IMG/VR virus record: IMGVR_UViG_3300013132_000019
Length of the DNA: 64,000 nucleotides
Source of the DNA: a virus
Lineage: Duplodnaviria; Heunggongvirae; Uroviricota; Caudoviricetes
Reading direction: 5' to 3' (one strand)
Part shown: piece after piece, positions 43,479 to 60,682 of the stretch
Numbering within the stretch: the stretch's first letter is position 1
Layout of the letters: each line of letters begins with the position of its first letter
Position numbers and translations under genes: made by a program
The notes under the pieces: generated by a model
Told to the model about the DNA's origin: nothing
Databases searched by the model: none
The model's input: only the letters and a program-made list of their open reading frames with translations

Positions 43479-44060
43479 TTAGCTTGCCGCTACATGATGG
43501 TCAATTTCCTTCGAGACTCTTTGACTGAGAATACCATCAATCTCATCAAAAGTGAATGGTCTATATTCGCCTAATATTCTGGCAGCACTATCAATACCAA
43601 CGTCCATGCTTTTCCCCCATTGTTCATATTCCAATGAGTCATGTGAGTGTCCATAAAGGTGGTATGAACCGTGATGTGACTTATTCCAGACTCTCATGGC
43701 ATAATGACACATTACAATCATATTACGTTTACCATTGTATTCATACTTTAACTCGTAGTAATCCTTAATCCATTCAAATCTATCACGATTTTCTTTGCTG
43801 GACATAACGCTCTTCTCATGGTTACCTTTAATCAGATATAACCTACCGTTAAGTCTGTTAAGAATCTTATTGGTTTCTTCTTGATTTGTCAAACTGACAT
43901 CACCAAGAATATATACCTCATCATTCGGCTTAATAAGATTATTCCAGTTTTTGATTATGGTTTCATTCATATTATCAACAGACTCAAATGGTCTATTAGC
44001 GTATTTAATAATATTTTTGTGCCCGAAATGCGGGTCTGAAATAAAATAAGTATTTTTCAT
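43479..44060 (-). CDS. metallophosphoesterase (calcineurin-like), 193 aa
   Basis: ISDPHFGH, GDVSL and GNHE motifs. Confidence 0.7.
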   Translation of the reverse strand: MKNTYFISDPHFGHKNIIKYANRPFESVDNMNETIIKNWNNLIKPNDEVYILGDVSLTNQEETNKILNRLNGRLYLIKGNHEKSVMSSKENRDRFEWIKDYYELKYEYNGKRNMIVMCHYAMRVWNKSHHGSYHLYGHSHDSLEYEQWGKSMDVGIDSAARILGEYRPFTFDEIDGILSQRVSKEIDHHVAAS

Positions 44061-44075
44061 TTGTTTGTTGTTTAA

Positions 44076-44297
44076 TTATTTATTATTGTTTTTGATTTCT
44101 TCTAAATCCTTTTCAAGTTGCTGAACGATGAACTCAACTTCATAGCTTATCTGTTCCATCTTACTCCCCTCACCTTCATAGTACGTAAACGAATGTTTGG
44201 TTTTTGGATGATATAGTTTTCGTATGGCGTTTAGTGCCGTAGCCTTTTTGTACTGTATCAATTCTGTTTTTGTCATAAAAGTAGTTTTAGTTAACAA
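44076..44297 (-). CDS. hypothetical protein (73 aa)
   Basis: ORF. Confidence 0.4.
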   Translation of the reverse strand: MLTKTTFMTKTELIQYKKATALNAIRKLYHPKTKHSFTYYEGEGSKMEQISYEVEFIVQQLEKDLEEIKNNNK

Positions 44298-44343
44298 TAC
44301 AAAAATAACATTTTTTTTTTGACTACGTGACAGTTAAATTCAG

Positions 44344-44754
44344 TTAATCTTTTGGTCTGATATATTTGTAAGTAACATTAAAAATATTAATTTTGTCTAA
44401 GGGTTGGTTAGTTCCCCCGAATCTTATTACACCGACTTCTTCTTCCCTAAAATCTATTAAAACATGAAATACGCCATTAATTCCTATATTTCTAGTCCCA
44501 GCATCTAACAGTACAATGTTTGCTATGCTGGATGGGTCGGTAGGTTGCCAAACTTCTTCACTGAAAATAATTCGGGCCTCTCTGTCGTGAAAGATACTGT
44601 TTAACCAATTGGTCATGAATTCCATTTTCCGTTCCTTAGTCATTTTACGACCATAGAAAAAGGATTGGCAACGATAAGTGAATTCTTGTATCTTTTGTAT
44701 TGTCTCCGCGACATCGGCACTATATTGTAATTGAATGTTAATTAAATCTTTCAT
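44344..44754 (-). CDS. hypothetical protein (136 aa)
   Basis: ORF. TATATTTG sits 4 nt before the ATG. Confidence 0.5.
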   Translation of the reverse strand: MKDLINIQLQYSADVAETIQKIQEFTYRCQSFFYGRKMTKERKMEFMTNWLNSIFHDREARIIFSEEVWQPTDPSSIANIVLLDAGTRNIGINGVFHVLIDFREEEVGVIRFGGTNQPLDKINIFNVTYKYIRPKD

Positions 44755-44796
44755 AGAGCAAATATATAAATTATTTTATTAATAAACAAATTTTTG

Positions 44797-44871
44797 TTCC
44801 CCCAGCTGGACTCGAACCAGCACCCCTTAATTAAAAGTTAAGTAGTCTAAACCAATTGAACCTATGAGGGA
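44797..44871 (-). tRNA. tRNA-Lys (anticodon UUU)
   Basis: Hand fold. Acceptor TCCCTCA/TGGGGGA, anticodon arm CTTAA-CTTTTAA-TTAAG, T-arm CTGG-TTCGAGT-CCAG. Confidence 0.6.
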
Positions 44872-44879
44872 ATTTAAAA

Positions 44880-44953
44880 TGGAGCCGCATGAGAGAGTCG
44901 AACTCTCGCCTTCTGATTGGAAGTCAGATGTGCTGCCGTAACACCTATGCGGC
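44880..44953 (-). tRNA. tRNA-Gly (anticodon UCC), CCA encoded
   Basis: Acceptor GCCGCAT/ATGCGGC, anticodon arm TCTGA-CTTCCAA-TCAGA, T-arm GAGAG-TTCGACT-CTCTC, followed by TCCA. Confidence 0.6.
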
Positions 44954-44968
44954 AAAAAAAATCAACTG

Positions 44969-45040
44969 AGCACCCACTCAGGCTTGAACTGAGGACTGAA
45001 GATTACAAATCTACCGTTTTCCCAACTAAACTATGGGTGC
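44969..45040 (-). tRNA. tRNA-Thr (anticodon UGU); one U-U mismatch in the anticodon stem
   Basis: Acceptor GCACCCA/TGGGTGC, D-arm GTTT..AAAC, anticodon loop TTTGTAA, T-arm CTCAG-TTCAAGC-CTGAG. Confidence 0.5.
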
Positions 45041-45048
45041 ATTAATTG

Positions 45049-45121
45049 TGGGGAACAATAGACTCGAACTATATTGCGGTTCGCTTTTACAGAGCGTCCG
45101 ACCAACCCTGGGCGATTCCCC
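45049..45121 (-). tRNA. tRNA, probably Tyr (anticodon GUA) with a short variable arm
   Basis: Acceptor GGGGAAT/GTTCCCC, anticodon loop CTGTAAA, T-loop TTCGAGT. Position 8 is C, which is unusual. Confidence 0.4.
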
Positions 45122-45197
45122 TATTTTGTATTATTTTTATAATTAGAGCCTGTGCGTTATCTATAATATGACATCACGCTTTATCTCTAAAGTCAAG

Positions 45198-45270
45198 TTG
45201 CCCCGCTAGGTCTCGAACCTAGACTCTTCTGCTTCAAAAACAGACGTGTTCCCAATTACACCACAGGGCA
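45198..45270 (-). tRNA. tRNA-Gln (anticodon UUG)
   Basis: Acceptor TGCCCTG/CGGGGCA, anticodon arm TCTGT-TTTTGAA-GCAGA, T-arm CTAGG-TTCGAGA-CCTAG. Confidence 0.55.
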
Positions 45271-45307
45271 ATTTAATTATTATCCCGACAATTTGTCGGG
45301 ATTAATG

Positions 45308-45382
45308 TCGGGAGAGTGGGATTCGAACCCACGAACCGATACGTCCAAGGTACCGTTGTATAGCCATCTGCATAACCTCCCG
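45308..45382 (-). tRNA. tRNA-Pro (anticodon UGG)
   Basis: Acceptor CGGGAGG/TCTCCCG, anticodon arm GGTAC-CTTGGAC-GTATC, T-arm GTGGG-TTCGAAT-CCCAC. Confidence 0.55.
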
Positions 45383-45527
45383 TTATACTATCCCATTATT
45401 TTTCCCAGCAGCCGACTGAGGCTTCCAATGCCCCCGCGCCTAGTTTTATTTTTTTTTCATTACCACGATGTCAAAGAACACGAATTTTATTTTTTATGTT
45501 GTTAAAATTCAAGCAACAAAAAAGCCC

Positions 45528-45560
45528 AGAAGGTTTTTAATCCTCTGGGCTTGCCTTATC
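45528..45560 (-). terminator. rho-independent terminator (GCCCAGA...TCTGGGC followed by T6 on the minus strand)
   Basis: 7-bp GC stem with a 13-nt loop and a T-run. Separates the leader cassette from the tRNA cluster. Confidence 0.55.
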
Positions 45561-45581
45561 GTTATTATACTTTTATCCTAT

Positions 45582-45680
45582 CATAAGAAGAACAATGAGT
45601 TTAGATACGACATGCCCAGTTCGCTCGGCTTCGTGCCTTGCGGATACTGTTTTCCTTGATATGTCGTATAAGTTTTCATT
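45582..45680 (-). CDS. conserved leader small ORF (32 codons, MKTYTTYQGKQYPQGTKPSELGMSYLNSLFFL) within a GC-rich structured segment; may be a non-coding RNA rather than a protein gene
   Basis: Begins CCATATTTAATTAAAAGAAGTAATGAAAACT, as do the cassettes at 54351 and 57888. Contains the inverted repeat TACGACAT...ATGTCGTA. Confidence 0.3.
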
Positions 45681-45810
45681 ACTTCTTTTAATTAAATATG
45701 GTTAAGTTTTAAAAAGTTTATTTTTTTGTAAATAAAACAGATTCAGTTTCTTTTATCCAAATATAAAGTTTAAAATTTGCTGAAGTGAATCTTCAAATCA
45801 TTTACAGAAC

Positions 45811-45818
45811 AAATATAT
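45811..45818 (-). promoter_or_regulatory. -7 box TATATTTG with upstream CTTGCA (-33-like) element; promoter of the leader cassette for tRNA cluster 1
   Basis: A ~50-bp block, acaaatatataacatgttttctaataatgcaagtctttt, repeated nearly identically at 58082-58130. Confidence 0.5.
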
Positions 45819-45859
45819 AACATGTTTTCTAATAATGCAAGTCTTTTGAAAAAAAAAAA

Positions 45860-46090
45860 TTAATTTTCTAACCATAACCATATTAATCTTTTCAATTTTG
45901 ACCAATAACTTCTTGGTTTCCAATCACTTATATTACAGTTATAACAATGATTTATGTTAAAAATATCTCTACTGGTATAATACAAGTAGAATGGTGTTTT
46001 TTGACATATCTCACATTTTTGTGCGGTTCCGATTGGTTGACTGTCATAATCTTCAAAATATTTATGGTCAAACTTGTTTTTGGTACTCAT
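45860..46090 (-). CDS. hypothetical Cys-rich protein (76 aa)
   Basis: ORF with CEICQ...CYNCN. Confidence 0.4.
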   Translation of the reverse strand: MSTKNKFDHKYFEDYDSQPIGTAQKCEICQKTPFYLYYTSRDIFNINHCYNCNISDWKPRSYWSKLKRLIWLWLEN

Positions 46091-46610
46091 ATGGATTATG
46101 TTCTAATTTAGTTACATCTATAGCTTCACCTGAATCAATTAAACCAAATATATCAATTTTTTCTGATAATAGTTCTCTGAAAACAAAAAATGGTGCATGA
46201 AATAACATGGTACCATGAGTTGGATTATCGATAAAGGTTTCTAACCACTCACGATGAGCATCACAGCAATTACTATTTCCTTCAACCATAAAATATATTC
46301 GATGATTAGTCTCACCATTAACAGTTATTTCATCCAACAAATAACTTTTTGGTAATAGTAATGGTTTAACCTCAAACTTAGCGTAATTATTCTCACCGTC
46401 CCACGCAAAATAATTACCAACAGGTGATTTAAATGTATCAATATTTAATACATCAATGTATGTAGTTTCAAATTCTGATTTGGCTAACCCAGTTAATAGC
46501 TGTATGTTTTCAAAACTATCATAAGGGCACTCCACTAATAACCCAAACGGTAAATAAAAACTTAATTCTTCTATTTTCATGTTTTTAATTTTAAAAATTG
46601 TCTGATACAT
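46068..46610 (-). CDS. hypothetical protein (180 aa)
   Basis: ORF. Confidence 0.5.
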   Translation of the reverse strand: MYQTIFKIKNMKIEELSFYLPFGLLVECPYDSFENIQLLTGLAKSEFETTYIDVLNIDTFKSPVGNYFAWDGENNYAKFEVKPLLLPKSYLLDEITVNGETNHRIYFMVEGNSNCCDAHREWLETFIDNPTHGTMLFHAPFFVFRELLSEKIDIFGLIDSGEAIDVTKLEHNPYEYQKQV

Positions 46611-47115
46611 TATTAATTGCCCATCTTTCTGGATTAGCTTCCCATGGGCTTAAGTAATGTCTTCTTTTTCGATATTTAAATTGCTTTAGATTTTCTCTAG
46701 CATATTTTTTATATGTATCAAAATGATTGTATCTAATGATATATGCAGCATAATTATGTTCAAAAACCTTTTCAAATTTAGGGTTTATCGTTCTTACAAA
46801 TTCTCGGCTACTGTCTTGAACGTTGATACCTATTGAACAACCAAACGACCAAACGGGATTAGCTAATTTTTTATGTATAATTCTTAATTTAGGTTTATGT
46901 ATAAGATTGAAAGCCCAGTCTTTTACGAATTCATCAAAAATTACTTGATAATCATCTAAATTAACTTTTCGGTTTAATTTACGACTGGCCGCGTATTTTG
47001 CTAAATTATTGTAAGATTTAGAATAAAACTTTAACATATTTAATGGGTCTTTTGGTTTAGACCTAATTATGTCATTATGATTTGGATTATTGAAGCTCAT
47101 GTTAATATTTACCAA
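46591..47115 (-). CDS. hypothetical protein (174 aa)
   Basis: ORF. Confidence 0.5.
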   Translation of the reverse strand: MVNINMSFNNPNHNDIIRSKPKDPLNMLKFYSKSYNNLAKYAASRKLNRKVNLDDYQVIFDEFVKDWAFNLIHKPKLRIIHKKLANPVWSFGCSIGINVQDSSREFVRTINPKFEKVFEHNYAAYIIRYNHFDTYKKYARENLKQFKYRKRRHYLSPWEANPERWAINNVSDNF

Positions 47116-47392
47116 CGAATTTTTCTAAATCTTTATCGATTTTATATTGCTCGTATTTTTCATGTAGCCGTTCCCATTCCTTATCTCTATCGATATTATC
47201 ACCTAAGTGACTTAAAATTAATCTTGTCATTTCTTCGGTCAGCCCAAAGTAGGTTATTGCCATCTCAAAACTATCCTCAGAACCAGATAATAGTCCTGTC
47301 AATTCTTCTTCGGTAACGTATACGACCATCATTCGGTCACGATTGAATAATGCATCAAATGCAATTTTTAATCTTGCTAATAGTTTGTTCAT
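47102..47392 (-). CDS. hypothetical protein (96 aa)
   Basis: ORF. Confidence 0.45.
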   Translation of the reverse strand: MNKLLARLKIAFDALFNRDRMMVVYVTEEELTGLLSGSEDSFEMAITYFGLTEEMTRLILSHLGDNIDRDKEWERLHEKYEQYKIDKDLEKFVGKY

Positions 47393-47456
47393 TAATTATG
47401 TTTTTTTTTTTCAGTTCGTTTACCTTTGGCTAAAAAACCCATATTAAATTAATTTT

Positions 47457-47546
47457 GTGGTTGTGGTGGCTACGAACCACTTGAGGCTTCTCACCTCTGA
47501 TTAAACGGATTTGCACCGTTTACGGCCCATTGCGTCCGCACAACCA
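47457..47546 (-). tRNA. class II tRNA (90 nt, long variable stem-loop); the anticodon reads CAA (Leu) but position 33 is G, so identity is uncertain
   Basis: Acceptor TGGTTGT/ACAACCA, anticodon arm AACGG-TGCAAAT-CCGTT, variable arm GAGG-TGAGAAG-CCTC, T-arm GTGG-TTCGTAG-CCAC. Confidence 0.4.
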
Positions 47547-47558
47547 ATATTATTAAAA

Positions 47559-47645
47559 ACCAAACCGTGGGATTCGAACCCCAAAGGCCTTACGTATTGG
47601 CCACCCTCCTGTCCGTCCTTTCCACAAGTAACTTTCCTAATTTGG
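47559..47645 (-). ncRNA. degenerate tRNA-like element (87 nt), intact acceptor stem and TTCGAAT T-loop but a weak T-stem and no clear anticodon arm
   Basis: Acceptor CCAAATT/GGTTTGG, GGGG-TTCGAAT-CCC, internal GGCC-AATACGTAA-GGCC hairpin. Confidence 0.3.
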
Positions 47646-47654
47646 TTTTTATAA

Positions 47655-47700
47655 TTCAATAGGGCGGTTACGAACCGCTAGGACAGGTACTCCTATCGAA
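47655..47700 (-). ncRNA. tRNA-like minihelix (acceptor-like stem, TAGGA-GTACCTG-TCCTA hairpin, GCGG-TTCGTAA-CCGC T-arm-like hairpin)
   Basis: About 48 nt, lacking a D-arm. Confidence 0.3.
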
Positions 47701-47745
47701 CATTTTTTCTTTAATCACCTTACAAATATAGTAATTTTTTTGATT

Positions 47746-48132
47746 TCACAACAGTAGCATTAAGGTTAAAAACAATTGTACATAATGTAATACTTGGTCA
47801 AAACCAACGCTAACAAAAAAATTATGCACGTCACCTTTTGCCCACAACCTTGAGTTTAGTCTGCTAGTAAAATAATCAGTAACTGTATGTGATATAAATG
47901 TGATTAAGGTGAACATTATTGAATTCAATACGTACCAATTAGTTGTGTGTCCACCTGACATTAAACCAAAAAGTATACAACTAACAAGTAACCATACCGA
48001 ACTATATGTACTGGTATGCGCTAATAAGTCACGCCAATTATTACTTTTACCTTTAGCTTGTTTATCAGTTTGTAACACAAAATCAGCAAACCAATGGGTT
48101 ATAAGAACTAAAAAAACTACGGTTAATGTCAT
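47746..48132 (-). CDS. integral membrane protein, about four TM helices (128 aa)
   Basis: Hydrophobic segments throughout. Confidence 0.5.
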   Translation of the reverse strand: MTLTVVFLVLITHWFADFVLQTDKQAKGKSNNWRDLLAHTSTYSSVWLLVSCILFGLMSGGHTTNWYVLNSIMFTLITFISHTVTDYFTSRLNSRLWAKGDVHNFFVSVGFDQVLHYVQLFLTLMLLL

Positions 48133-48171
48133 ATTATCTTTTTTATGTTTTTAAATTTTAAAATTAAATTT

Positions 48172-48235
48172 AGATTGGGGTGGGAGTCGAACCCACCTAT
48201 GCCAACCAATCTTGAAGGATTCGAACCCCCGTAAA
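48172..48235 (-). ncRNA. tRNA-like minihelix / pseudo-tRNA fragments (acceptor AGATTGG/CCAATCT plus GTGGG-TTCGACT-CCCAC T-arm, and a second GGGGG-TTCGAAT motif)
   Basis: Two T-arm-like motifs with no complete cloverleaf. Confidence 0.3.
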
Positions 48236-48284
48236 ACAAAGCGGAACCGAAAACTGACAACCATTCAGTTTTAGTTTTAAGCTC

Positions 48285-48387
48285 GTAGTCAGGACAGGAT
48301 TCGAACCTATATGAAGTATCATCTAATGACCTTATTCTTTTACCCACAATGTAGGGTATTATGCGTCTACCAATTCCGCCACCTGAC
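48285..48387 (-). tRNA. tRNA-Leu-like gene (Leu-type D-arm GGTGGCGGAATTGGTAGACGC), 103 nt, with about 18 nt more than a normal class II tRNA; anticodon unresolved; possible small intron or insert
   Basis: Perfect acceptor AGTCAGG/CCTGACT and T-arm ATAGG-TTCGAAT-CCTGT. The candidate anticodon hairpin TACCC-TACATTGT-GGGTA has an 8-nt loop. A separate ATGA-TACT-TCAT hairpin sits where a variable arm would be. Confidence 0.4.
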
Positions 48388-48589
48388 TATATTCGGGACG
48401 GGAGTAAGCCGCTCCCGTTTGTCCCTACTTCTTTACTGTCGTTTGAGTTTTGAGTTTAGGTCTGAAAACTCCTTCGGTAAGGAAAAGGACCACAGTTTTC
48501 TGGAAAACTTACCTAAACCCCTTTATACAACATTTGTTTCATCTCGTTAAACAATAGTCTCATAGGACGAGGACTAAAAAACGGCTTGT

Positions 48590-48719
48590 GGTCAGTAAAG
48601 GATTCGAACCTTTATAAGATGAGGTGTGTTTTTCTCTCAGGGCTTATTACGCGTTACTCACCCGTCTTGATTACCGACACTTGTTACCAATCTGTGTTTC
48701 GCCAATACACCGACTGACC
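48590..48719 (-). tRNA. tRNA-like gene (130 nt) whose ~50-nt internal insert is derived from the 16S rRNA 5' domain (GACGGGTGAGTAACGCGTAATAAGCCCTGAGAGAAA...ACACCTCAT)
   Basis: Acceptor GGTCAGT/ACTGACC, D-arm GTGT-ATTGGCGAA-ACAC and T-arm AAAGG-TTCGAAT-CCTTT are all perfect. The insert contains an exact 18-mer of the universally conserved bacterial 16S region GACGGGTGAGTAACGCGT. Confidence 0.4.
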
Positions 48720-48850
48720 GTTTAAAAAATTCAATGAGGGTTTCCATTTCCTCTCCGATAACTGTTGTCAATGTGATTTGTGTTAGTGTACCTCTAACTT
48801 AGACACATCGGTGACTCCCATTGTATATGGTTTTAACGTCAATTGAATTG

Positions 48851-48980
48851 TAGTCAGGACAGGATTCGAACCTGTACAGTGTAGTTATATTTTCCCGATA
48901 CCTTTGGAAACTTAATTCCTCAATCTTGTGTAATCTACACCATTATCTTTTTTAGCGTCTACCAATTCCGCCACCTGACT
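48851..48980 (-). tRNA. second tRNA-Leu-like gene (same acceptor, D-arm and T-arm as 48285..48387), 130 nt, with a ~45-nt internal insert; anticodon unresolved
   Basis: The exon-like ends are identical to the first copy. The middle segment differs and contains a GTGTA-GAT-TACAC hairpin. Confidence 0.4.
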
Positions 48981-49444
48981 ATGAAATTATCATCTGCCTC
49001 CCACCACAGGAGGATGCAGTTAATCTGAATCCCTTTCACAGTAATCATATTACTAGGTGTACCAGATGCCATTTTGAGTTAATGGTAACCACACTTTCAA
49101 ACAGACAACGCCCTTTGGTGTCGGGCTATACTTTGATGGCAGCTCCAGACCATCTCTTTTCGGAACTTCATAACTGAAAGTACTGTCTGCTGAAACAGAT
49201 GAATTTTAATATTATAAAACCAATTGGATGAGTCAAAATATGTTACGGTTGATGGCCTCGGTGAAATTTTTAGTTTTCATAAAAGCAATTTCAACTTAAC
49301 TTGTACCAAACAACCATAATTCTAAATAGGTGGCCTACACACTCAGCACCAGTTGCATGGTGGCAACCTGAAATGTGGACGATGCTGCCTCGCCATTAAA
49401 CTGCTATCGGCCTACCTTTATAATATTGTCAAAGAACGATGATA
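48981..49444 (-). ncRNA. ~460-nt GC-enriched, structured, ORF-poor leader transcribed from the promoter at 49445 into the tRNA cluster; contains an ATGAAAACT-initiated 15-codon ORF
   Basis: There is a TATATTTG box at 49445-49452 and no ORF of 60 codons or more. Multiple hairpins are present, and gcttttATGAAAACTAAAAATTTC resembles the other cassette leaders. Confidence 0.3.
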
Positions 49445-49476
49445 CAAATATAGTGATTATTTTTCATATCACCAAA

Positions 49477-50037
49477 TTATTTTTCACTTTTTTCTGAATT
49501 TTTTTCTTCTTTAAGTTCAGCTATCATATCTCTAAGTCTAGCAGCTCTTTCATAGTTTTCGGTATCAACACAATACTGCAACTTGGTAGTCAATAGGTCA
49601 AGTTTTTCTTCTTTGGTTATTTCTCGATTTTTAAAAGGTTTCCTATTAGCCGAACCCATCCCGCTAACAAATGAAAAGAAGTCTTCAATATCATTCATAT
49701 TAATACCCAATGAATCATAATCTGTTATACTTTCAATATCAAAATCATCATTCTCAATGTTAATGTTGGTTGACTCAATGATTTTAACTTTACCTGTTGG
49801 TGTATTCCATATTTTTTCAATAAAAGTGTGACCATCTTGTTTAAACTCCCTTACTGAATCTGGTTCACCCAAATCTTCTTTGTCGTTGAAGTGGTGTTCC
49901 CTAAACCCTTTAAGGAATGAACCGAAACCACCAAAACCTCTTATAAAATCATCATCAAATCCGTCACCGAACATATCACCAAAGAAATCGTCATCGTTTT
50001 TTTTCATAGTATTTTTATTTTTTACAAATATACACAA
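49477..50037 (-). CDS. acidic protein with a C-terminal UVR (UvrB/UvrC-type) motif (186 aa)
   Basis: YERAARLRDMIAELKEEK matches the UVR domain consensus. Confidence 0.5.
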   Translation of the reverse strand: MCIFVKNKNTMKKNDDDFFGDMFGDGFDDDFIRGFGGFGSFLKGFREHHFNDKEDLGEPDSVREFKQDGHTFIEKIWNTPTGKVKIIESTNINIENDDFDIESITDYDSLGINMNDIEDFFSFVSGMGSANRKPFKNREITKEEKLDLLTTKLQYCVDTENYERAARLRDMIAELKEEKNSEKSEK

Positions 50038-50074
50038 ATTTTAAACCATATAGGTTTTCCTGTCAAATTGACAT

Positions 50075-50359
50075 TTAAAGTATCTTTTTAATCGTATTCA
50101 AAGTATTTCTTAGTTTTTCTCTAAAATATAATAAAGGGTTTATTTTAGAGAAATAGAAAAATAAGCCAAAGAACAGAGCCGATAGGCAATAGAAAATTAA
50201 AGTTGTAGTCCAATAATCCCCTGTCCAACTCATTATCGATGCAAACGCCACATCGAACCCGAATGGGTTTGTCCAAGTCGCTAGAATTAGACAAATCGTT
50301 GCTATCTTTCTGTTTACTGTCACCATCAGTATTTTCCATGAATTATTATTTAATATCAA
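50075..50359 (-). CDS. small membrane protein (94 aa)
   Basis: Two or three hydrophobic helices. Lies just outside the right end of the IS. Confidence 0.35.
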   Translation of the reverse strand: MILNNNSWKILMVTVNRKIATICLILATWTNPFGFDVAFASIMSWTGDYWTTTLIFYCLSALFFGLFFYFSKINPLLYFREKLRNTLNTIKKIL

Positions 50360-50399
50360 TTCGATTTAATCATCTAATATATGATACTATCGAATTCTT

Positions 50400-50560
50400 A
50401 TTTATTATAAATATGTTAAAAAAAAAAGAAGGGGAGCCATTACGGTCTTTCTTGTGATTCAATGCGCAATCACCACAATAACAATCGGTCTTCGAGAGGT
50501 CGGTGAACTACCCACCCACGCCAGAGGCGATGGGTTGGGCTTCATGAGTCAGCACTCCCA
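50400..50560 (-). ncRNA. candidate omega-RNA (TnpB guide RNA scaffold) overlapping the tnpB 3' end and the IS right end
   Basis: An exceptionally GC-rich, hairpin-rich ~150 nt (for example CCCACCCACGCCAGAGGCGATGGGTTGGG), in the position where IS605-family omega-RNAs are encoded. Confidence 0.35.
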
Positions 50561-51785
50561 CTAACGTGGGCAGTTCGTCATGATTTTTTCTGTCAGTTCC
50601 TGACAAAATATTTCTTAAACTAAAATTTTTAATATTAATTGCCGCATTTATATCCCTATCATGTTCAGTATTACAGTTAACACAAGTCCATTCTCTATCT
50701 TTTAACGTTAGTTCTTTATTAATATAACCACAGTTAGAACATGTCTTTGATGATGGTTCAAATCTACCTATCTTAAGTATATTTGTTCCATACCATTCAG
50801 ACTTATATTCTAACATATTAACAAAAGTTGACCAACTTACATCTGATATTGCTTGTGCTAAATTATGATTTTTAATCATATTACTTACAGCAAGATTTTC
50901 TAAACTGATTGTTTGGTTCTCACGAACCAGTTTAGAAGATATTTTATGCAAATAATCTTTTCTTTTATTTGTTACTTTTTCATGTAACTTTGCTAATTTT
51001 TGTTTTGTTCTTTTTCCTTTATTTTTACTATACTTACTCTGTATGTATTTTAATTTAGATTGTGCTTTACGTAAGTGCTTAGGGTTATCAAATACTTCAC
51101 CATCTGATGTTATTACGAAATCTTTAATTCCTAAGTCTATACCAATAGTAGTTTCTTCTTTTATCTTAGATTTAGGTTTACATTGTTCACCAGTTTCACA
51201 AAGAATGGAAACAAAATACTTACCTGTGGGTGTTTTAGATATTGTTGCTTGTCTTATTTCACCTTTAAGTGGTCTATGTAATATAATATCTAACCCATTT
51301 TTCTTTGTGAATTTAGGTATAATTAATTTATTATTTTCTACTTTTACTCTTTGTGGTATGTTAAAACTACCACCATTAGATTTCTTTTTATACTTAGGAA
51401 ATGAATTTTGACCTTTAAAAAAAGCGGTATATGCTTTATCTAAATTAGTTATACTTTGCTGTAATGATTGTGAATTAATTTCCTTTAACCAAGACAATTC
51501 TTCTTTCAATTCTTTTAGTTGTGAATGCAGTTCAAAACAAGAAAGATTATGTTTATTGCCAGCATAAGCTATTTGTTTGGTTTCCAACGCTAAATTATAT
51601 ATAAACCTAGAAGCACCAATATGCTTATTCAGAAGAACTTTTTGTTCTTCAGTCGGATTAAGTCTATATTTAAAAGCTTTCAACATCATATATAAATATG
51701 TAGAAAAATTAAAAAGTTTAAAGAAAATATAAAATTTATTTACATTTATTGAATTAATGTTGTTATTGTCGCTTTCATCCCACCC
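50471..51785 (-). mobile_element. TnpB-only IS200/IS605-family (IS1341-like) insertion element, about 1.3 kb, with a short inverted motif at the ends
   Basis: tnpB runs 50508..51689. CACAATAACAATCG at 50474-50487 and its inverse CGACAATAACAAC at 51770-51782 flank it. A GC-rich segment overlaps the tnpB 3' end. Confidence 0.55.
50508..51689 (-). CDS. tnpB: TnpB (IS605 OrfB-family RuvC-like RNA-guided endonuclease), 393 aa
   Basis: N-terminal FKYRLNPT. RuvC-I IGIDLGIKDF. Zinc finger CSNCG...CVNC. RuvC-III DRDINAAINI. Confidence 0.8.
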   Translation of the reverse strand: MMLKAFKYRLNPTEEQKVLLNKHIGASRFIYNLALETKQIAYAGNKHNLSCFELHSQLKELKEELSWLKEINSQSLQQSITNLDKAYTAFFKGQNSFPKYKKKSNGGSFNIPQRVKVENNKLIIPKFTKKNGLDIILHRPLKGEIRQATISKTPTGKYFVSILCETGEQCKPKSKIKEETTIGIDLGIKDFVITSDGEVFDNPKHLRKAQSKLKYIQSKYSKNKGKRTKQKLAKLHEKVTNKRKDYLHKISSKLVRENQTISLENLAVSNMIKNHNLAQAISDVSWSTFVNMLEYKSEWYGTNILKIGRFEPSSKTCSNCGYINKELTLKDREWTCVNCNTEHDRDINAAINIKNFSLRNILSGTDRKNHDELPTLVGVLTHEAQPIASGVGG

Positions 51786-51930
51786 ACTTTCTATGTAAGT
51801 TTCAGGTTCACGTTTCTAACTGCTTCAAAGAAAAAATTTGATGTTAATACGAATTTGCTGAAATGAACCTTTAATGTTTTAATTTCAAAGAACAATACAA
51901 ATATACAAATTATATTTTAATTGTGCAAAT

Positions 51931-52338
51931 TTATTCATAAAAAGTTACCATTCTTTGTTGCGGTCTAACTTCACGGCAAGAACCCCAACCGTCAAATTCA
52001 GTACCATGGTATGATTGATACCAACCATCAACTCTGACATAAACATCATGGTCAACAAAATGGTATACAATGTACCATTCTTCACCTTCACCTTCACCAC
52101 CGTGTTGGTCAACAACATTTACGGTACCAAATTTAGTCGTTTTAAGATATTCCTCTCTTCGTTGCTTTCTAGACTCATAGTCACTATCAAGTTCTGGCAT
52201 GAAATCATTTGGTACCGTGATGTAGTAAAAACCATCATGAGCAAATTCTGAAACGTCACCAAAGGTAGCTTCAATTTCCGTCATTAATTCTGAGAATGTT
52301 AATTTTTCCATTTTTTTTCTAATTTTAAAGTGATTCAA
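51931..52338 (-). CDS. hypothetical protein (135 aa)
   Basis: ORF. Confidence 0.5.
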   Translation of the reverse strand: MNHFKIRKKMEKLTFSELMTEIEATFGDVSEFAHDGFYYITVPNDFMPELDSDYESRKQRREEYLKTTKFGTVNVVDQHGGEGEGEEWYIVYHFVDHDVYVRVDGWYQSYHGTEFDGWGSCREVRPQQRMVTFYE

Positions 52339-52561
52339 ATTTTGTTATTTTAACTTCCGTTGGTTCAACGAACTGTATACCAATCAATTCCTTATATCCA
52401 TAGGAATCTCTGTAGTAGTCTAATTTAATATATAATTTATCAGATAATTTTTTAACCTCATAACATGATTGGTCATCGTCATAATCATAAGGTGTTCTGG
52501 ACTCAGCTATTTCGAGTCCGTTAACATTATGTAATAATTTGTTAATTTCAGTTAAGTTCAT
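52325..52561 (-). CDS. hypothetical protein (78 aa)
   Basis: ORF. Confidence 0.4.
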   Translation of the reverse strand: MNLTEINKLLHNVNGLEIAESRTPYDYDDDQSCYEVKKLSDKLYIKLDYYRDSYGYKELIGIQFVEPTEVKITKFESL

Positions 52562-53315
52562 AGTTTAATTGATTTTTAATTAAGTTAATAAAATTGATTT
52601 CGGCTCTATTGATTTTTAAATAATTTTCAACAACAAATGGGAACATCCATATTGGCGCATGTTGCATGATGAACTTCTTTAACATCTTTGAATATGCAAT
52701 CAAATAATGTTTATTCTTATACCGTTCATAAGCCATAACATACACTTCTTCCCTAATAACATCAAGTTTCTCATTTAATGATAACCCATTGAATTTATCT
52801 TCAGATATTTCAACGTCCTTACCGTCAACCAATATTTTTTGATATGTTGGTTCTGGATTGATTAATGTATGTAAATGGTCATGCTCATGTTCATCATAAT
52901 TGATAGCGTTAGTGAAAAATTCATCCTTTGTCATATTAAGATTGCTCCTTCTATGTCTTGGGTGAAAATCTTTCCAATAATCATATAACTCCAATAACAG
53001 ATTATAATCATATTGACAACCCTTTTTCAATAAGAACTGCACATCCCACATATGTTTATCCCAATTGATGTTGAAAAATAAATGAGACATCTTAAGTGTC
53101 AATAACATATTCGGGTCAATATACTTCTGACCATCTGAGATATGCTTGAATAAAATTGGATTTTCCAAATACTCAACCTCTCTGGTGGTTTTAAGACCTT
53201 CAGTTGATTCAACAGCAATGTCGATATCTTTTGGTTCCCTATTAAAGTCAGGGAAATGATACCTCATTGCTGTTGAACCTATTATCAACTCTTTATTGAT
53301 TGTCTCATTTTGCAT
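52548..53315 (-). CDS. nucleotidyltransferase-fold protein (start corrected to MQNETINK), with a pol-beta-like GS...D.D motif
   Basis: IGSTAMRYHFPDFNREPKDIDIAV, plus the His-rich EHEHDHLH. The track start MYICTM is the promoter box read in frame. Confidence 0.4.
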   Translation of the reverse strand: MQNETINKELIIGSTAMRYHFPDFNREPKDIDIAVESTEGLKTTREVEYLENPILFKHISDGQKYIDPNMLLTLKMSHLFFNINWDKHMWDVQFLLKKGCQYDYNLLLELYDYWKDFHPRHRRSNLNMTKDEFFTNAINYDEHEHDHLHTLINPEPTYQKILVDGKDVEISEDKFNGLSLNEKLDVIREEVYVMAYERYKNKHYLIAYSKMLKKFIMQHAPIWMFPFVVENYLKINRAEINFINLIKNQLNYELN

Positions 53316-53351
53316 GGTACAAATATACAAAATATTTTTAACTATGCAAAT

Positions 53352-53792
53352 CTATTTTCTTTTACGTTTATTTTTCCTAGATGTTTTTTTCTTAATCTTG
53401 TTAGATTTACTTTTGTTTTTAGACTTATGGTTCTTAATTCTATATCGATTTTTTCGTTTCTTTGATTTAGCTAATGTTCTTGATTCTTTGCTTGACATGT
53501 AACCACCATCACCACCTTCTTTGAGGTTTAAACATTTGGAATCTTTTAATATATCACCAGTTACAATAGTTTTTTCGATTTCAGATAATATTTTTCGATT
53601 ATCAGCAAAAGCTAATATTTCATTGACATGATTTTCAACACCATATTTCTTCACCGAATGTTTCAACAAAACACCTGAACCAATATACCCATCGTTAAGG
53701 TCACTGGTTGAATGTATACCAATATAATATTTACCAGTTACCTGACAGGTTGTTTTGTATATATAATGATATTTTTTATTATTGTTCGCCAC
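53352..53792 (-). CDS. GIY-YIG endonuclease (Seg-like homing endonuclease) with a basic C-terminal tail; GTG start
   Basis: KYHYIYKTTCQVTGKYYIGIHS is the GIY-YIG signature. The C-terminus is Lys/Arg-rich. It lies adjacent to a tRNA cluster. Confidence 0.6.
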   Translation of the reverse strand: MANNNKKYHYIYKTTCQVTGKYYIGIHSTSDLNDGYIGSGVLLKHSVKKYGVENHVNEILAFADNRKILSEIEKTIVTGDILKDSKCLNLKEGGDGGYMSSKESRTLAKSKKRKNRYRIKNHKSKNKSKSNKIKKKTSRKNKRKRK

Positions 53793-53811
53793 AATAATAA
53801 ATATTTTAAAG

Positions 53812-53884
53812 TGTAGCGTATCGGCCTCGAACCGATGACTCCGCCTTGCAAGGGCAGTATTATAGCCAGCTTAACTAACACCAC
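53812..53884 (-). tRNA. tRNA-Ala (anticodon UGC) with a G3:U70 pair
   Basis: Acceptor GTGGTGT/ACGCTAC, anticodon arm CTGCC-CTTGCAA-GGCGG, T-arm ATCGG-TTCGAGG-CCGAT. Confidence 0.6.
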
Positions 53885-53909
53885 AATAAGTGCCAAAAAT
53901 ATGTCTAGG

Positions 53910-53982
53910 CGGACGCCACGGGGGTTGAACCCGCAATCTCAGCCGTGACAGGGCCGTATGTTACCAACAACACCTCGCGTCC
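53910..53982 (-). tRNA. tRNA-Asp (anticodon GUC)
   Basis: Anticodon arm CGGCC-CTGTCAC-GGCTG, T-arm GCGGG-TTCAACC-CCCGT. Confidence 0.55.
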
Positions 53983-54035
53983 GTTAATATCCGTCTTTCC
54001 AGATTGTCAAAAGGCTTTAAAACTCTATATTTTCA

Positions 54036-54109
54036 GTAGTCCGTATGGGATTTGAACCCATGACTCCGCTGTGAAAGAGCGGTGACTTAAACCACTTGTC
54101 GAACGGACC
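54036..54109 (-). tRNA. tRNA-Glu (anticodon UUC)
   Basis: Acceptor GGTCCGT/ACGGACT, anticodon arm CCGCT-CTTTCAC-AGCGG, T-arm ATGGG-TTCAAAT-CCCAT. Confidence 0.6.
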
Positions 54110-54115
54110 GTTTTG

Positions 54116-54188
54116 TGTGATGGGTTGGAATCGAACCAACATTATCGCTTTTTCAGAGCGACACCTTGACCAACTTGGTAACCACCAC
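54116..54188 (-). tRNA. tRNA-Phe (anticodon GAA)
   Basis: Acceptor GTGGTGG/CCATCAC, anticodon arm TCGCT-CTGAAAA-AGCGA, T-arm GTTGG-TTCGATT-CCAAC. Confidence 0.6.
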
Positions 54189-54203
54189 ATACATCAAAAA
54201 AAA

Positions 54204-54232
54204 AACCCTTCGGATATCCGAAGGGTTTCTTA
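54204..54232 (-). terminator. rho-independent terminator (perfect palindrome AACCCTTCGGATATCCGAAGGGTT followed by T10 on the minus strand)
   Basis: Direct read. Separates the leader cassette from tRNA cluster 3. Confidence 0.65.
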
Positions 54233-54258
54233 TCGTTTTTTATTTGACTTTTAGTTAC

Positions 54259-54351
54259 GACAAATCCTTCGGATTGTAAACACAATCATCCTCCTCCGCT
54301 GCGAATGCGGCAAAGTTGAAAGCAAATATGTCGTTAAAAGTTTTCATAGTT
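54259..54351 (-). CDS. conserved leader small ORF (30 codons, MKTFNDIFAFNFAAFAAEEDDCVYNPKDLS) with embedded hairpins; may be non-coding
   Basis: The leader CCATATTTAATTAATAAGAGAAAAAACTATGAAAACT is conserved with the 45680 and 57888 loci. Confidence 0.3.
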
Positions 54352-54377
54352 TTTTCTCTTATTAATTAAATATGGTG

Positions 54378-54385
54378 CAAATATA
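54378..54385 (-). promoter_or_regulatory. -7 box TATATTTG with a CTTGCATAGTTA -33-like element; promoter of the leader cassette for tRNA cluster 3
   Basis: On the minus strand: CTTGCATAGTTAATAAGTCTTTTGTATATTTG. Confidence 0.5.
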
Positions 54386-54431
54386 CAAAAGACTTATTAA
54401 CTATGCAAGTTTTTTCAAAAAAAAAATGAAA

Positions 54432-56991: not shown

Positions 56992-57051
56992 TTGCGAACT
57001 TTATAATAAATAGTTTAGTAATTCTACAAATGTACTAAAATTTAATTAATG

Positions 57052-57129
57052 TGGGCAAGACGGGAATCGAACCCGTATATCCTTTACTTTTGAGGTAAAG
57101 AGGCTTCACCAGCTTTCCATCACTCGCCC
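57052..57129 (-). tRNA. tRNA with a Leu anticodon (CAA) but class-I architecture (short variable arm, enlarged D-loop)
   Basis: Acceptor GGGCGAG/CTTGCCC, anticodon arm TTTAC-CTCAAAA-GTAAA, T-arm ACGGG-TTCGATT-CCCGT, D-loop containing AAAGCTGGTGAAG. Confidence 0.5.
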
Positions 57130-57139
57130 AAATTTTTAG

Positions 57140-57217
57140 TAGGGAAGACGGGAGTCGAACCCGTATATCCTTTGATTTTAAGTCAAAGAGGCTTCACCAG
57201 CTTTCCATCACTTCCCC
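57140..57217 (-). tRNA. paralogous tRNA with a Leu anticodon (UAA), same atypical architecture
   Basis: Acceptor GGGGAAG/CTTCCCT, anticodon arm TTTGA-CTTAAAA-TCAAA, T-arm ACGGG-TTCGACT-CCCGT. Confidence 0.5.
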
Positions 57218-57447
57218 TTAACTACCTTATCAAAAAAGCCTTTTGGCATATTAGCGTTCATCGTCATAAACTCTTCTTCTGTTTGAATACCTTCGTTCGC
57301 TTCCCACATACTTTTACAGTATTCTATAAAGGCATTACCATGGTTTTTGGTCATGTATTTGAAGTCATACTTGAAGTTGTTTACGTCAGAATCATAATCC
57401 ATTGTTTCAATGAACTTATCCCATGCAACTTTTTTAATTTCACGCAT
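57208..57447 (-). CDS. hypothetical protein (79 aa)
   Basis: ORF whose 3' end overlaps the 5' end of the adjacent tRNA by a few nt. The start may lie later. Confidence 0.35.
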   Translation of the reverse strand: MREIKKVAWDKFIETMDYDSDVNNFKYDFKYMTKNHGNAFIEYCKSMWEANEGIQTEEEFMTMNANMPKGFFDKVVKGK

Positions 57448-57472
57448 AATTAATTTATTAACTCATTATCTG

Positions 57473-57550
57473 TACGGGTAGAGGGAGTCGAACCCCCAAA
57501 TCAGCAGTTCCTAAGACTGCTCGGCTTCACCAAACTTTCCGCATACCCGC
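57473..57550 (-). tRNA. third paralog with a Leu anticodon (UAG), same atypical architecture
   Basis: Acceptor GCGGGTA/TACCCGT, D-stem CGG/CCG with a 14-nt loop, anticodon arm GCAGT-CTTAGGA-ACTGC, T-arm GGGGG-TTCGACT-CCCTC. Confidence 0.5.
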
Positions 57551-57559
57551 ATTTTTTTG

Positions 57560-57631
57560 TACCCCAGACTGGAATCGAACCAGTTCTCCCGCCATGTAAA
57601 AACGGAGCGCTAACCATTACACCACTGGGGC
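57560..57631 (-). tRNA. tRNA-Val (anticodon UAC)
   Basis: Acceptor GCCCCAG/CTGGGGT, anticodon arm CCGTT-TTTACAT-GGCGG, T-arm ACTGG-TTCGATT-CCAGT. Confidence 0.55.
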
Positions 57632-57751
57632 TTACTTGAGAAGATGGTCAGATTCGAACTGACGTAAACATGATTTGCAGTCATGTGGCTAATTCCAACT
57701 CACCCACACCTTCAATTATTTTATTTCAAAGAACCGATAAAAAACAAAAAA

Positions 57752-57785
57752 CCCGACTCATATTGCTATGGTCGGGTTACCCTTT
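57752..57785 (-). terminator. rho-independent terminator (AACCCGAC-loop-GTCGGGTT followed by TTTTGTTTTTT on the minus strand)
   Basis: Direct read. Separates the leader cassette from tRNA cluster 4. Confidence 0.6.
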
Positions 57786-57804
57786 TTGTGTTATTAACAA
57801 TTCA

Positions 57805-57888
57805 TCAGTTAACACAATAGTCCGACCATCTCGGTTCCACGACCAAGAGACATAGGTTTAAGACTAAAGTGTTTACTACTGTATTCAT
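57805..57888 (-). CDS. conserved leader small ORF (27 codons, MNTVVNTLVLNLCLLVVEPRWSDYCVN); may be non-coding
   Basis: The leader CTATTTAATTAATAATAGAAAAAACTATGAATACA is conserved with the other cassettes. Confidence 0.3.
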   Translation of the reverse strand: MNTVVNTLVLNLCLLVVEPRWSDYCVN

Positions 57889-58083: not shown

Positions 58084-58091
58084 CAAATATA
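58084..58091 (-). promoter_or_regulatory. -7 box TATATTTG within a ~50-bp promoter block duplicated from 45812-45862; drives the leader cassette for tRNA cluster 4
   Basis: acaaatatataacatgttttctaataatgcaagtcttttt is nearly identical to the 45.8-kb copy. Confidence 0.5.
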
Positions 58092-58165
58092 TAACATGTT
58101 TTCTAATAATGCAAGTCTTTTTGAAAAAAAATTCACTTTTAATCAGCTGTAATTATAATTGATAT

Positions 58166-60642: not shown

Positions 60643-60682
60643 TTTTAATTATTACAATACAAATATATAAATTATCTTTTAA

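Follow-up and report, generated by a model that had tools for sequence, protein, structure and literature searches.

What does a promoter followed by a small open reading frame (ORF) and a terminator do when it stands in front of one phage transfer RNA (tRNA) cluster after another? The question is raised by a 64,000-nucleotide (nt) stretch of viral DNA (IMG/VR virus record IMGVR_UViG_3300013132_000019), which we call the window here. Its GC content is 32%, and PHROG and Pfam matches to phage proteins, a T4 Rnl1-type RNA ligase and homologues of one neighbouring gene in Lak megaphages and Maribacter phage Molly suggest a large phage with a host among the Bacteroidota. Why phages carry tRNAs at all and how the expression of these follows demand are open questions, and codon-usage compensation, the replacement of degraded host tRNAs and the evasion of tRNA-cleaving defences are among the proposed answers. 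The initial annotation of the window had described the arrangement as a conserved cassette and had left two explanations side by side: an attenuator governing readthrough into the tRNA operons, or a family of small RNAs (sRNAs) or micropeptides.

The ORFs of three such units, A, B and C, share a rule and not a sequence: the composition of each matches the set of tRNAs encoded downstream of it. The first explanation is the one that our results support, as the codons of the leaders are those that the downstream tRNAs decode, and as a terminator and a candidate antiterminator accompany them. We put at about 80% the probability that the phage tRNA operons are preceded, in units A, B and C, by ribosome-mediated transcription attenuators of the leader-peptide type, which would act as multiplex sensors of the supply of cognate aminoacyl-tRNAs.

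Three tRNA operons share the layout of their leaders

At three of the four loci in question, a Bacteroidetes-type promoter is followed by an ORF of 27-32 codons, an intrinsic terminator and tRNA genes. Units A (45514-45840), B (54192-54408) and C (57739-58114) lie with all their features and their tRNA operons on the minus strand.

45810..45840, minus strand: promoter A (TTG-N-TAtaTTTG), inside a 38-nt block identical to the unit C promoter
45680..45809, minus strand: 5' untranslated region (UTR) of unit A, homologous to the unit C 5' UTR, with the motif AAGATTCACTTCAGCAAATTT at 45773-45793
45679..45581, minus strand: leader ORF A, 32 codons, peptide MKTYTTYQGKQYPQGTKPSELGMSYLNSLFFL, GC 0.41
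45626..45676, minus strand: putative regulatory codon run of A (KTYTTYQGKQYPQGTKP), residues 2-18, all 17 residues from Pro/Gln/Tyr/Thr/Gly/Lys
44796..45382, minus strand: tRNA operon A, Pro(TGG), Gln(TTG), Tyr(GTA), Thr(TGT), Gly(TCC), Lys(TTT) (ARAGORN, Rfam)
54378..54408, minus strand: promoter B, a match to the consensus
54347..54255, minus strand: leader ORF B, 30 codons, peptide MKTFNDIFAFNFAAFAAEEDDCVYNPKDLS, putative regulatory run at 54285-54338
53811..54188, minus strand: tRNA operon B, Phe(GAA), Glu(TTC), Asp(GTC), Ala(TGC) (ARAGORN, Rfam)
58084..58114, minus strand: promoter C, a match to the consensus
57888..57805, minus strand: leader ORF C, 27 codons, peptide MNTVVNTLVLNLCLLVVEPRWSDYCVN, putative regulatory run at 57838-57879
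57051..57713, minus strand: tRNA operon C, Cys(GCA), Val(TAC), Leu(TAG), a 79-amino-acid ORF, Leu(TAA), Leu(CAA) (ARAGORN, Rfam)

The shared layout had been described before, and at A, B and C we recovered each of its parts, namely the promoter, the GC-rich ORF (GC 0.39-0.41 in the three leader ORFs vs 0.32 in the whole window), the terminator and the tRNAs; at 49.4 kb it broke down, as this locus has no terminator and an ORF with a GC content of 0.33. Sites fitting the promoter consensus that was scanned for (TTG-N17-21-TAnnTTTG) number 34 on the minus strand vs 10 on the plus strand of the window. The distance between the -7 box and the ORF start is about 30 nt in B and about 130-190 nt in A and C, and the start codons are preceded by A-rich sequence with no obvious Shine-Dalgarno motif, as read from the sequence. 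The alignment of units A and C covers the promoter and the 5' UTR and ends at the start codon; C has an insertion of about 54 nt. The homology between them noted in the initial annotation thus holds for this part, in which the identical promoter block comes to 38 nt (45809-45846 in A, 58083-58120 in C), but it does not extend to the ORFs and terminators, which cannot be aligned with each other.

One member of operon A, the tRNA-Tyr(GTA) at 45048-45121 on the minus strand, was found by ARAGORN with a relaxed threshold and had been missed both by ARAGORN with default settings and by Rfam. Four Tyr codons in leader A predict this tRNA.

Leader codons mirror the downstream tRNA set

We compared the residues of each leader with the amino acids of its own tRNA set, using the amino-acid composition of the long ORFs of the window as the binomial background. 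In leader A, all of residues 2-18 (17/17) belong to the set of operon A (p = 1.7e-9). The best window of leader B, a Phe/Ala/Glu/Asp run, has 13/14 residues from its own set (p = 1e-7), and that of leader C, a Val/Leu/Cys run, has 11/14 (p = 2e-7). A fourth leader, MRTMNIHRNSISNWRRNSLNESSMSII (beginning MRTMNIHRNSISNWRRNS), was found in a related viral contig (L001), whose neighbouring protein is 61% identical to that of the window. Here, 24/26 residues come from the leader's own tRNA set, and a terminator follows; the tRNA cluster reads His, Trp, Thr, Ser, Ile, Ser, Met, Asn, Arg, Arg, Ser. When each of the four leaders (A, B, C and L001) was scored against each of the four tRNA sets, all off-diagonal best-window p values were at least 0.07.

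The correspondence can be followed to the codons. Under strict wobble rules, the codons of residues 2-18 that the downstream anticodons can read amount to 15/17 in A, 10/17 in B and 8/17 in C, and they rise to 17, 12 and 11, respectively, if four-way reading by U34 is allowed. Beyond residues 1-3, the leader peptides have no common sequence motif. The earlier remark that the small ORFs share only an MKT or MNT start is therefore wrong in spirit, since what they share is a composition that matches the downstream tRNA set. The correspondence between codons and tRNAs, the decisive observation, had been missed at that stage.

The same rule in cultured phages, and controls

Cultured Cellulophaga phages have the device too, in three lineages (phi4:1/phi17:2, phi10:1 and Calle_1/phi40:1) and with the following runs and downstream tRNAs.

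phi4:1 / phi17:2 (Lightbulbvirus): run QRLHLQELEQP, tRNAs Pro, Glu, Gln, His, Leu, Leu, Arg
phi4:1 / phi17:2: run TKTGITVIDKTKGARA, tRNAs Ala, Lys, Ile, Gly, Met, Asp, Thr, Val, Arg, Met
phi4:1 / phi17:2: run NYCTYNNSNWSFSY, tRNAs Tyr, Ser, Ser, Asn, Trp, Phe and one more
phi10:1 (Assiduviridae): run WSYSCFSYSF, tRNAs Tyr, Trp, Phe, Ser, Cys
Calle_1 / phi40:1 (Pervagoviridae): run YNNFSWYSNCSFSSYN, tRNAs Tyr, Ser, Ser, Asn, Trp, Phe, Cys
Calle_1 / phi40:1: run RLLHQEPLEQLRLP, tRNAs Pro, Glu, Gln, His, one without an assigned identity, Leu, Arg
Calle_1 / phi40:1: run KTIMNIATDIRTKGVK, tRNAs Lys, Ile, Gly, Met, Asp, Thr, Val, Arg

The p values of the three Calle_1/phi40:1 leaders go down to 2e-10, and leaders of the Calle type were also detected at the DNA level (BLAST) in phi38:1. 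Of 64 tRNA amino acids, 63 occur in the leader of their own operon, the rare Trp, His, Cys and Met included. The rule extends to absences: Asn is missing from the run of phi10:1, a phage that lacks tRNA-Asn, and in phi4:1 and Calle_1, where tRNA-Asn is present, Asn occurs four times before the end of the run. Several of the leaders are listed in GenBank as hypothetical proteins, for example Phi4:1_gp075, the annotated start of which lies inside the promoter.

The composition of a leader also has predictive value. In phi4:1 (L008, NC_021788.1), the genes at 20398-20486 and 20854-20928 are both annotated as 'tRNA-OTHER / pseudo', and the composition of the leader predicted Asn and Cys. ARAGORN called the gene at 20398-20486 as Asn(GTT), as the leader predicted. 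The gene at 20854-20928 has the anticodon loop TTGCAAA and an imperfect stem; the loop fits a GCA anticodon, which suggests, without proving it, a tRNA-Cys.

In contrast, no comparable leader was found by the same scan in T4, T5, Myrna (a Mycobacterium phage), Achelous (a Vibrio phage) or crAss001 (a Bacteroides phage). Among about 40 control sub-clusters, the best p values were mostly 1e-3 to 1; two lay at 2e-4 to 3e-4, and a single outlier, in T5, reached 7e-6. The outlier (L031, NC_005859.1, minus strand) is a Cys-rich ORF of 48 amino acids with a zinc-ribbon-like CxxC...CxxC pattern that ends 5 nt before tRNA-Cys. Because it has neither a codon run nor a terminator, it is probably a real small protein placed there by coincidence and not an attenuator.

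Could chance have produced the match, given that intergenic DNA rich in A and T may hold small ORFs of low complexity? The number of windows and ORFs screened for each cluster was large, and one control, the T5 outlier, did reach p = 7e-6. The per-leader p values of 1e-7 to 2e-10, set beside the off-diagonal values, argue against it, as do the control clusters and the replication of the rule in five phage lineages with differing groupings of tRNAs. Moreover, none of 2000 random amino-acid sets of equal size reached the score of the real set in 8 of the 11 leaders included in this analysis, and 2, 7 and 22 of them did so in the other three. The probability left to chance is negligible, and the statistics effectively refute it.

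Comparison with GenBank phage DNA gave no close relative of the window in that collection, and DNA homologues of the 11 leaders were found only in Cellulophaga phages. The TerL of phi4:1 retrieved only itself when used as a query, a metagenome scan with the protein encoded at 46068-46610 found nothing, and distant homologues of the nucleotidyltransferase encoded at 54432-55577 mostly lacked an adjacent tRNA cluster. Exact DNA patterns derived from the phage tRNAs were also tried as a means of finding more clusters and were dropped, as the tRNAs are too diverged.

Terminators and candidate antiterminators

The architecture analysis covered 12 leaders, and the ribosome-mask analysis, as the random-set analysis above, 11. 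A hairpin with a T-run follows the ORF in 12/12 leaders, with a free energy (dG) of -12.6 to -19.9 kcal/mol (-14.9 to -19.9 kcal/mol for the GC stems after the three leader ORFs of the window), and 18-49 nt separate the stop codon from the 5' arm of this terminator (12/12 leaders). In most leaders, a segment in the 3' part of the ORF (codons about 16-28), called region 2 here, is complementary to that arm. In the window, the elements concerned are the following.

45605..45620, minus strand: region 2 of A, ACTGGGCATGTCGTAT, predicted to pair with region 1 (45654-45670, within the codon run) or with the terminator 5' arm
45514..45551, minus strand: intrinsic terminator A, AGCCCAGAGG / CTTCTGGGCT, then a T-run
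54258..54273, minus strand: region 2 of B, TCCGAAGGATTTGTCG, complementary to CCTTCGGA, the 5' arm of terminator B; a ribosome at the stop codon is predicted to mask it
54192..54228, minus strand: intrinsic terminator B, AAACCCTTCGGA / TCCGAAGGGTTT, then T10, a few nt short of tRNA-Phe
57808..57830, minus strand: region 2 of C, which includes ATGGTCGG, complementary to CCGACCAT in the terminator 5' arm
57739..57777, minus strand: intrinsic terminator C, ACCCGACCATA / TATGAGTCGGGT, then a T-run

The ORF segments and the terminator arms that complement them are paired as follows.

A: CTGGGC with GCCCAG
B: TCCGAAGG with CCTTCGGA
C: ATGGTCGG with CCGACCAT
L001: GAGTCGAG with CTCGACTC

The duplex of region 2 with the terminator arm (2:3) was compared with those formed by dinucleotide-shuffled ORFs. 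The p values of the leaders were 0.026, 0.040, 0.005, 0.002, 0.10, 0.024, 0.73-0.76, 0.011, 0.018, 0.072, 0.010 and 0.047, i.e., at most 0.05 in 9/12 leaders and at most about 0.10 in 11/12; a Fisher combination for which two of the terminators were mis-parsed gave 2e-6. In support of the pairing, a diverged homologue of C (L006) has another terminator (GCCCTAAC) and a correspondingly different ORF segment (TAGGGC). When the ORFs were folded alone, the minimum free energy structures of most leaders paired region 2 back onto the regulatory run. The predicted 1:2, 2:3 and 3:4 pairings are the classical set of alternative helices.

The effect of a ribosome was modelled at equilibrium, with the transcript cut before the 3' arm of the terminator and the ribosome treated as a mask. 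With the ribosome stalled at codon 6, 9 or 12 of the run, 2:3 pairing was possible in 11/11 leaders. With the ribosome at the stop codon, it was abolished in 5, reduced in 2 and kept in 4 of the 11 leaders, the last being those whose region 2 is farthest from the stop.

No promoter consensus of the TTG..TAnnTTTG type occurs between any terminator and its first tRNA. As the terminator of B, in addition, lies only a few nt from tRNA-Phe, the tRNAs would therefore be made only by readthrough of the terminators.

Conservation of the leader ORFs

Contigs L035 and L036 carry close relatives of units B and C. The nucleotide identity of the leader ORFs to these contigs is 100% for B and 98.8% for C, compared with about 80% for the adjacent protein gene and about 87% for the tRNA clusters, which makes the leader ORFs the most conserved DNA of the region. 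The sole change in leader B among the relatives is the in-frame loss of one Ala codon. As the leader ORFs are nearly identical in DNA while their neighbours diverge, their synonymous positions must be constrained too, and the equal conservation of synonymous and non-synonymous sites points to a constraint at the level of RNA and codons. Such a constraint would be expected if codon identity and RNA pairing both matter.

These data bear on the possibility that the cassettes are independent micropeptide or sRNA genes, with the tRNAs transcribed by constitutive leak-through or from unrecognised promoters, and with a codon/tRNA match that does not come from sensing. Each cassette is indeed complete, with its own promoter, ORF and terminator; gene callers and GenBank list some leaders as hypothetical proteins, and the ORFs are highly conserved among close relatives. 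However, the peptides are unrelated between loci, and yet the composition rule is kept in 11-12 leaders with differing tRNA sets, so that a family of sRNAs or micropeptides, as suggested in the initial annotation, leaves unexplained why composition tracks the tRNA set while the sequence differs from locus to locus. Independent genes would also leave unexplained the complementarity to terminator arms inside the ORFs, and they fit neither the conservation of synonymous sites nor the lack of a promoter consensus downstream of the terminators. We regard this possibility as very improbable.

How attenuation would work, and what weighs against it

The anatomy of the units, the codon/tRNA match, its covariation across phages, the complementarity between ORF and terminator and the lack of an intervening promoter consensus are observed, and on them we build a model of attenuation in which we infer the translation of the leader ORFs, the step from stalling to readthrough and the direction of the response. 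Transcription would begin at the Bacteroidetes-type promoter, and the transcript would first present an ORF of 27-32 codons, in which codons about 2-21 form a run decoded by the tRNAs encoded downstream. If the cognate aminoacyl-tRNAs are plentiful, the ribosome would reach the stop codon and either cover region 2 or let it re-pair with region 1; the terminator (3:4) would then form, RNA polymerase would stop before the tRNA genes, and the operon would be off. If any of the cognate aminoacyl-tRNAs is scarce, the ribosome would stall within the run, on region 1. Region 2, freed in this way, would pair with the 5' arm of the terminator as an antiterminator, and the polymerase would read into the tRNA operon. 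Each operon would thus have its own sensor for 3 to 9 amino acids, which amounts to a demand-driven feedback on phage tRNA synthesis. Those defining features of the mechanistic class that can be looked for in a sequence were all found, i.e., an ORF at the 5' end, a cluster of cognate codons, a terminator with no later promoter consensus and a predicted, mutually exclusive 2:3 helix.

Several points weigh against this model. The device is not universal, being absent at the fourth locus of the window and in crAss001. The runs contain residues from outside the set, namely Asn and Ile in B, Asn and Thr in C, and Asn and Ala in Calle-i. The leader phi4:1-ii has no significant antiterminator complementarity, and in four of the 11 leaders (A, L006, phi4:1-iii and Calle-iii), region 2 is too far from the stop codon for a terminating ribosome to mask it. 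In most leaders, equilibrium folding gives 2:3 pairing both in the absence of a ribosome and with a stalled one; as these two states are not separated by equilibrium folding, the model depends on kinetics, as for trp. If the ribosome stalled because of amino-acid starvation and not because of the loss of tRNAs, the tRNAs would be induced without benefit. Finally, we know of no study of tight transcription-translation coupling in these hosts.

In a rival reading, the leader is translated and its codon content matters, but the logic is not the classical one: readthrough could increase with efficient translation, a positive feedback that would set in when the phage tRNAs are working; translation could shield the transcript from Rho or RNases; or the terminated leader RNA could act in trans as an sRNA. 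In the four leaders named above, a ribosome at the stop codon indeed leaves region 2 unmasked, and the A and C transcripts have long conserved 5' UTRs with shared motifs; sRNAs derived from attenuators are also known, for example rnTrpL (PMC6614838). On the other side, the stop codon is 18-49 nt upstream of the terminator 5' arm, so that a translating ribosome cannot melt the terminator directly, and a segment complementary to the terminator that lies downstream of the codon run is the geometry of antitermination induced by stalling. Moreover, positive feedback does not need a run that covers every tRNA of the operon. We consider a non-classical logic of this kind unlikely, though clearly less so than independent genes.

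What would such attenuators be good for? A tentative answer, which goes well beyond attenuation as such and in which we have correspondingly less confidence, is that phages of marine Bacteroidota possess a demand-driven tRNA homeostat, in which a terminator keeps each operon off and only stalling on a 'test strip' of the operon's own codons turns it on; it could be an inducible counter-measure that replaces exactly those tRNAs that have been depleted. The loss of decoding capacity sensed in this way could stem from the degradation of host tRNAs induced by the phage or from anticodon nucleases of the host. The genes for an RNA ligase and a phosphoesterase beside the clusters would fit a context of tRNA damage.

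The fourth locus

The cassette had been said to precede every tRNA cluster in four copies. This is true of the three canonical clusters, and the fourth locus is not a copy.

48983..49475, minus strand: fourth locus, with a promoter at 49445-49475, a leader of about 460 nt and a 15-codon ORF at 49280..49233

The lack of a terminator and the length of the leader at this locus were borne out, and no hairpin with a T-run was found after its ORF. The ORF starts ATGAAAACT (MKTKNFTEAINRNIF) about 165 nt into the leader, has a GC content of 0.33 and matches the four tRNA sets against which it was scored only weakly (best-window p at least 0.025). The leader is not unusually structured (fold z = -0.46), and no homologue of the locus was found in any of the fetched loci. 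The sole feature that it shares with the other loci is the octamer ATGAAAAC, which had been taken as a mark of the cassette and does not serve as one, as it occurs five times on each strand of the window. Without a terminator, with no more than weak matches to tRNA sets and with downstream elements that are not canonical tRNAs, the fourth locus was excluded from the cassettes.

The downstream elements at 48980-48850, 48719-48589 and 48388-48285 (minus strand) have normal acceptor, D and T arms and enlarged, aberrant central regions. Two of the three share identical ends of 26-28 nt. Two of them have Rfam tRNA scores of 32-37 bits, and ARAGORN recognises them only if an intron is assumed. They are followed by T-arm/acceptor minihelices at 48262-48170 and about 47700-47460 (minus strand). 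The elements may be tRNA-like stable RNAs of the T4/T5 kind or unusual tRNAs. Seven amino acids (Ser, Ile, Met, Asn, Arg, His and Trp) otherwise have no tRNA in the window and do have one in the related contig L001.

Neighbouring genes and motifs

Three genes near the tRNA operons encode enzymes that may form a tRNA repair or maturation module.

62744-63898, minus strand: Rnl1-type (T4) RNA ligase, PF09511
55556-56305, minus strand: calcineurin-like metallophosphoesterase
54432-55577, minus strand: nucleotidyltransferase, with homologues in Lak megaphages, Maribacter phage Molly and cyanophages

Between the tRNA regions, at 50508-51689 on the minus strand, lies a gene for an IS605-family OrfB/TnpB-like transposase (phrog_506, E = 6e-127), and relatives L010 and L013 carry OrfB_IS605/Cas12f-like genes at other positions.

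Two short motifs recur on the minus strand. The first, AAGATTCAnTTCAGCAAATTT, is found at 45773-45793, 51851-51871 and 60573-60593, i.e., three matches at up to 3 mismatches vs 0.01 expected, and a more diverged copy lies near 58046-58066. It stands 20-90 nt downstream of several Bacteroidetes-type promoters, including those of units A and C and of the TnpB-like gene. The second, GTTCTTTGA(A/C)A, occurs at 45469-45479, 49427-49437, 51883-51893 and 57724-57734 (4 vs 0.23 expected), always in non-coding leaders: two copies are located between the terminator and the first tRNA (A and C) and two directly after a promoter. It is also present before tRNA-Cys in L006, and it may be a processing or protein-binding site. 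At 60615-60690 (minus strand), the sequence after a promoter is similar to the 5' half of a tRNA (GGTGAGGTAGCTCAGTGGTAGAGCAC), with no recognisable 3' half, and the AAGATTnnnTTCAGCAAATTT motif comes next.

Comparison with known systems

An Rfam search of the whole window, a check named in the initial annotation, brought only tRNA to the gathering score. No Rfam leader family reached it; for unit B, Phe_leader (RF01859) scored 27.4 vs a threshold of 55 bits, and His_leader (RF00514) 24.2 vs 49, both matches resting mainly on the terminator and on U-rich codons. A Phe_leader, His_leader or PyrR identity of unit B was rejected, the matches being below the threshold and driven by the terminator. 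T-boxes gave no Rfam match at the gathering score in the window, nor at E up to 1 in 44000-59000. A presumed attenuator or leader in front of the E. coli tRNA-Phe genes pheU and pheV was rejected as a precedent as well, since there is no leader ORF and the promoter abuts the tRNA. By mechanism, the units would be leader-peptide attenuators; by family, they belong to no Rfam leader family and not to the T-boxes.

To our knowledge, attenuation has been little studied in this phylum. No description of the control of tRNA genes by a leader peptide was found in the openly searchable full-text literature, a search that does not reach subscription-only papers. RNA sequencing of Cellulophaga baltica infected with phi38:1 has been published (PMC5335546), and the paper makes no mention of leader attenuators. 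We regard three things as new, namely tRNA genes as the target, phages as the carrier and a multiplexed leader that mirrors the tRNA content of its operon, although an earlier description in subscription-only papers is possible.

If the attenuation model is true, these would be the first tRNA genes under ribosome-mediated attenuation and the first leader peptides that read up to nine amino acids at once, and a textbook mechanism would be extended to non-coding RNA targets, to viruses and to a phylum little studied in this respect. A sensor of the capacity to decode just those codons that its operon serves would show that phage tRNA synthesis is regulated by demand, and with functional tRNA supply as the signal, it would bear on the 'replacement' and 'counter-defence' hypotheses of why phages carry tRNAs. 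The grouping of tRNAs into operons would be readable straight from the leader sequence, and the composition of a leader predicts the identity of odd or mis-annotated phage tRNAs, as demonstrated with tRNA-Asn of phi4:1. The leaders would also be compact, modular, codon-programmable switches. All this is directly testable in cultured Cellulophaga baltica with phi4:1, phi10:1 and phi38:1.

Among phage tRNA clusters, those of T4, T5 and other large phages resemble the ones described here in that the tRNA genes lie among small ORFs and tRNA-like stable RNAs and near tRNA-related enzymes. The clusters of T4, T5, Myrna, Achelous and crAss001 differ in that no upstream leader ORF enriched in cognate codons was found in them. 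With the drug-inducible leaders of ermC, cat and mef/mel, the phage units would have in common that a ribosome stalled on a short ORF remodels the downstream RNA; in those leaders, however, the stall results from an antibiotic and a specific nascent peptide, whereas the phage leaders would stall on the supply of cognate tRNAs.

The pheM-pheST attenuators and T-boxes are similar in another respect, as their output acts on the supply chain of translation and their signal is the availability of a given charged tRNA. T-boxes differ in that they bind uncharged tRNA directly, need no translation and do not control tRNA genes, and pheM differs in that it senses one amino acid and controls a synthetase and not tRNA genes.

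The closest counterparts are the proteobacterial leader-peptide attenuators, i.e., trpL, hisL, pheL, leuL, thrL and ilvL/ivbL, of which thrL reads Thr and Ile, and ilvL reads Ile, Leu and Val. Like the trp, his, phe, leu, thr and ilv attenuators, the phage units have a short promoter-proximal ORF with a run of codons, three mutually exclusive predicted helices and a stop codon shortly before the terminator. Unlike the attenuators of amino-acid operons, to the families of which they have no sequence homology, they are carried by phages and start from Bacteroidetes promoters; they would target tRNAs and not enzymes, and their runs comprise 3 to 9 amino acids that match the tRNA content of the operon.

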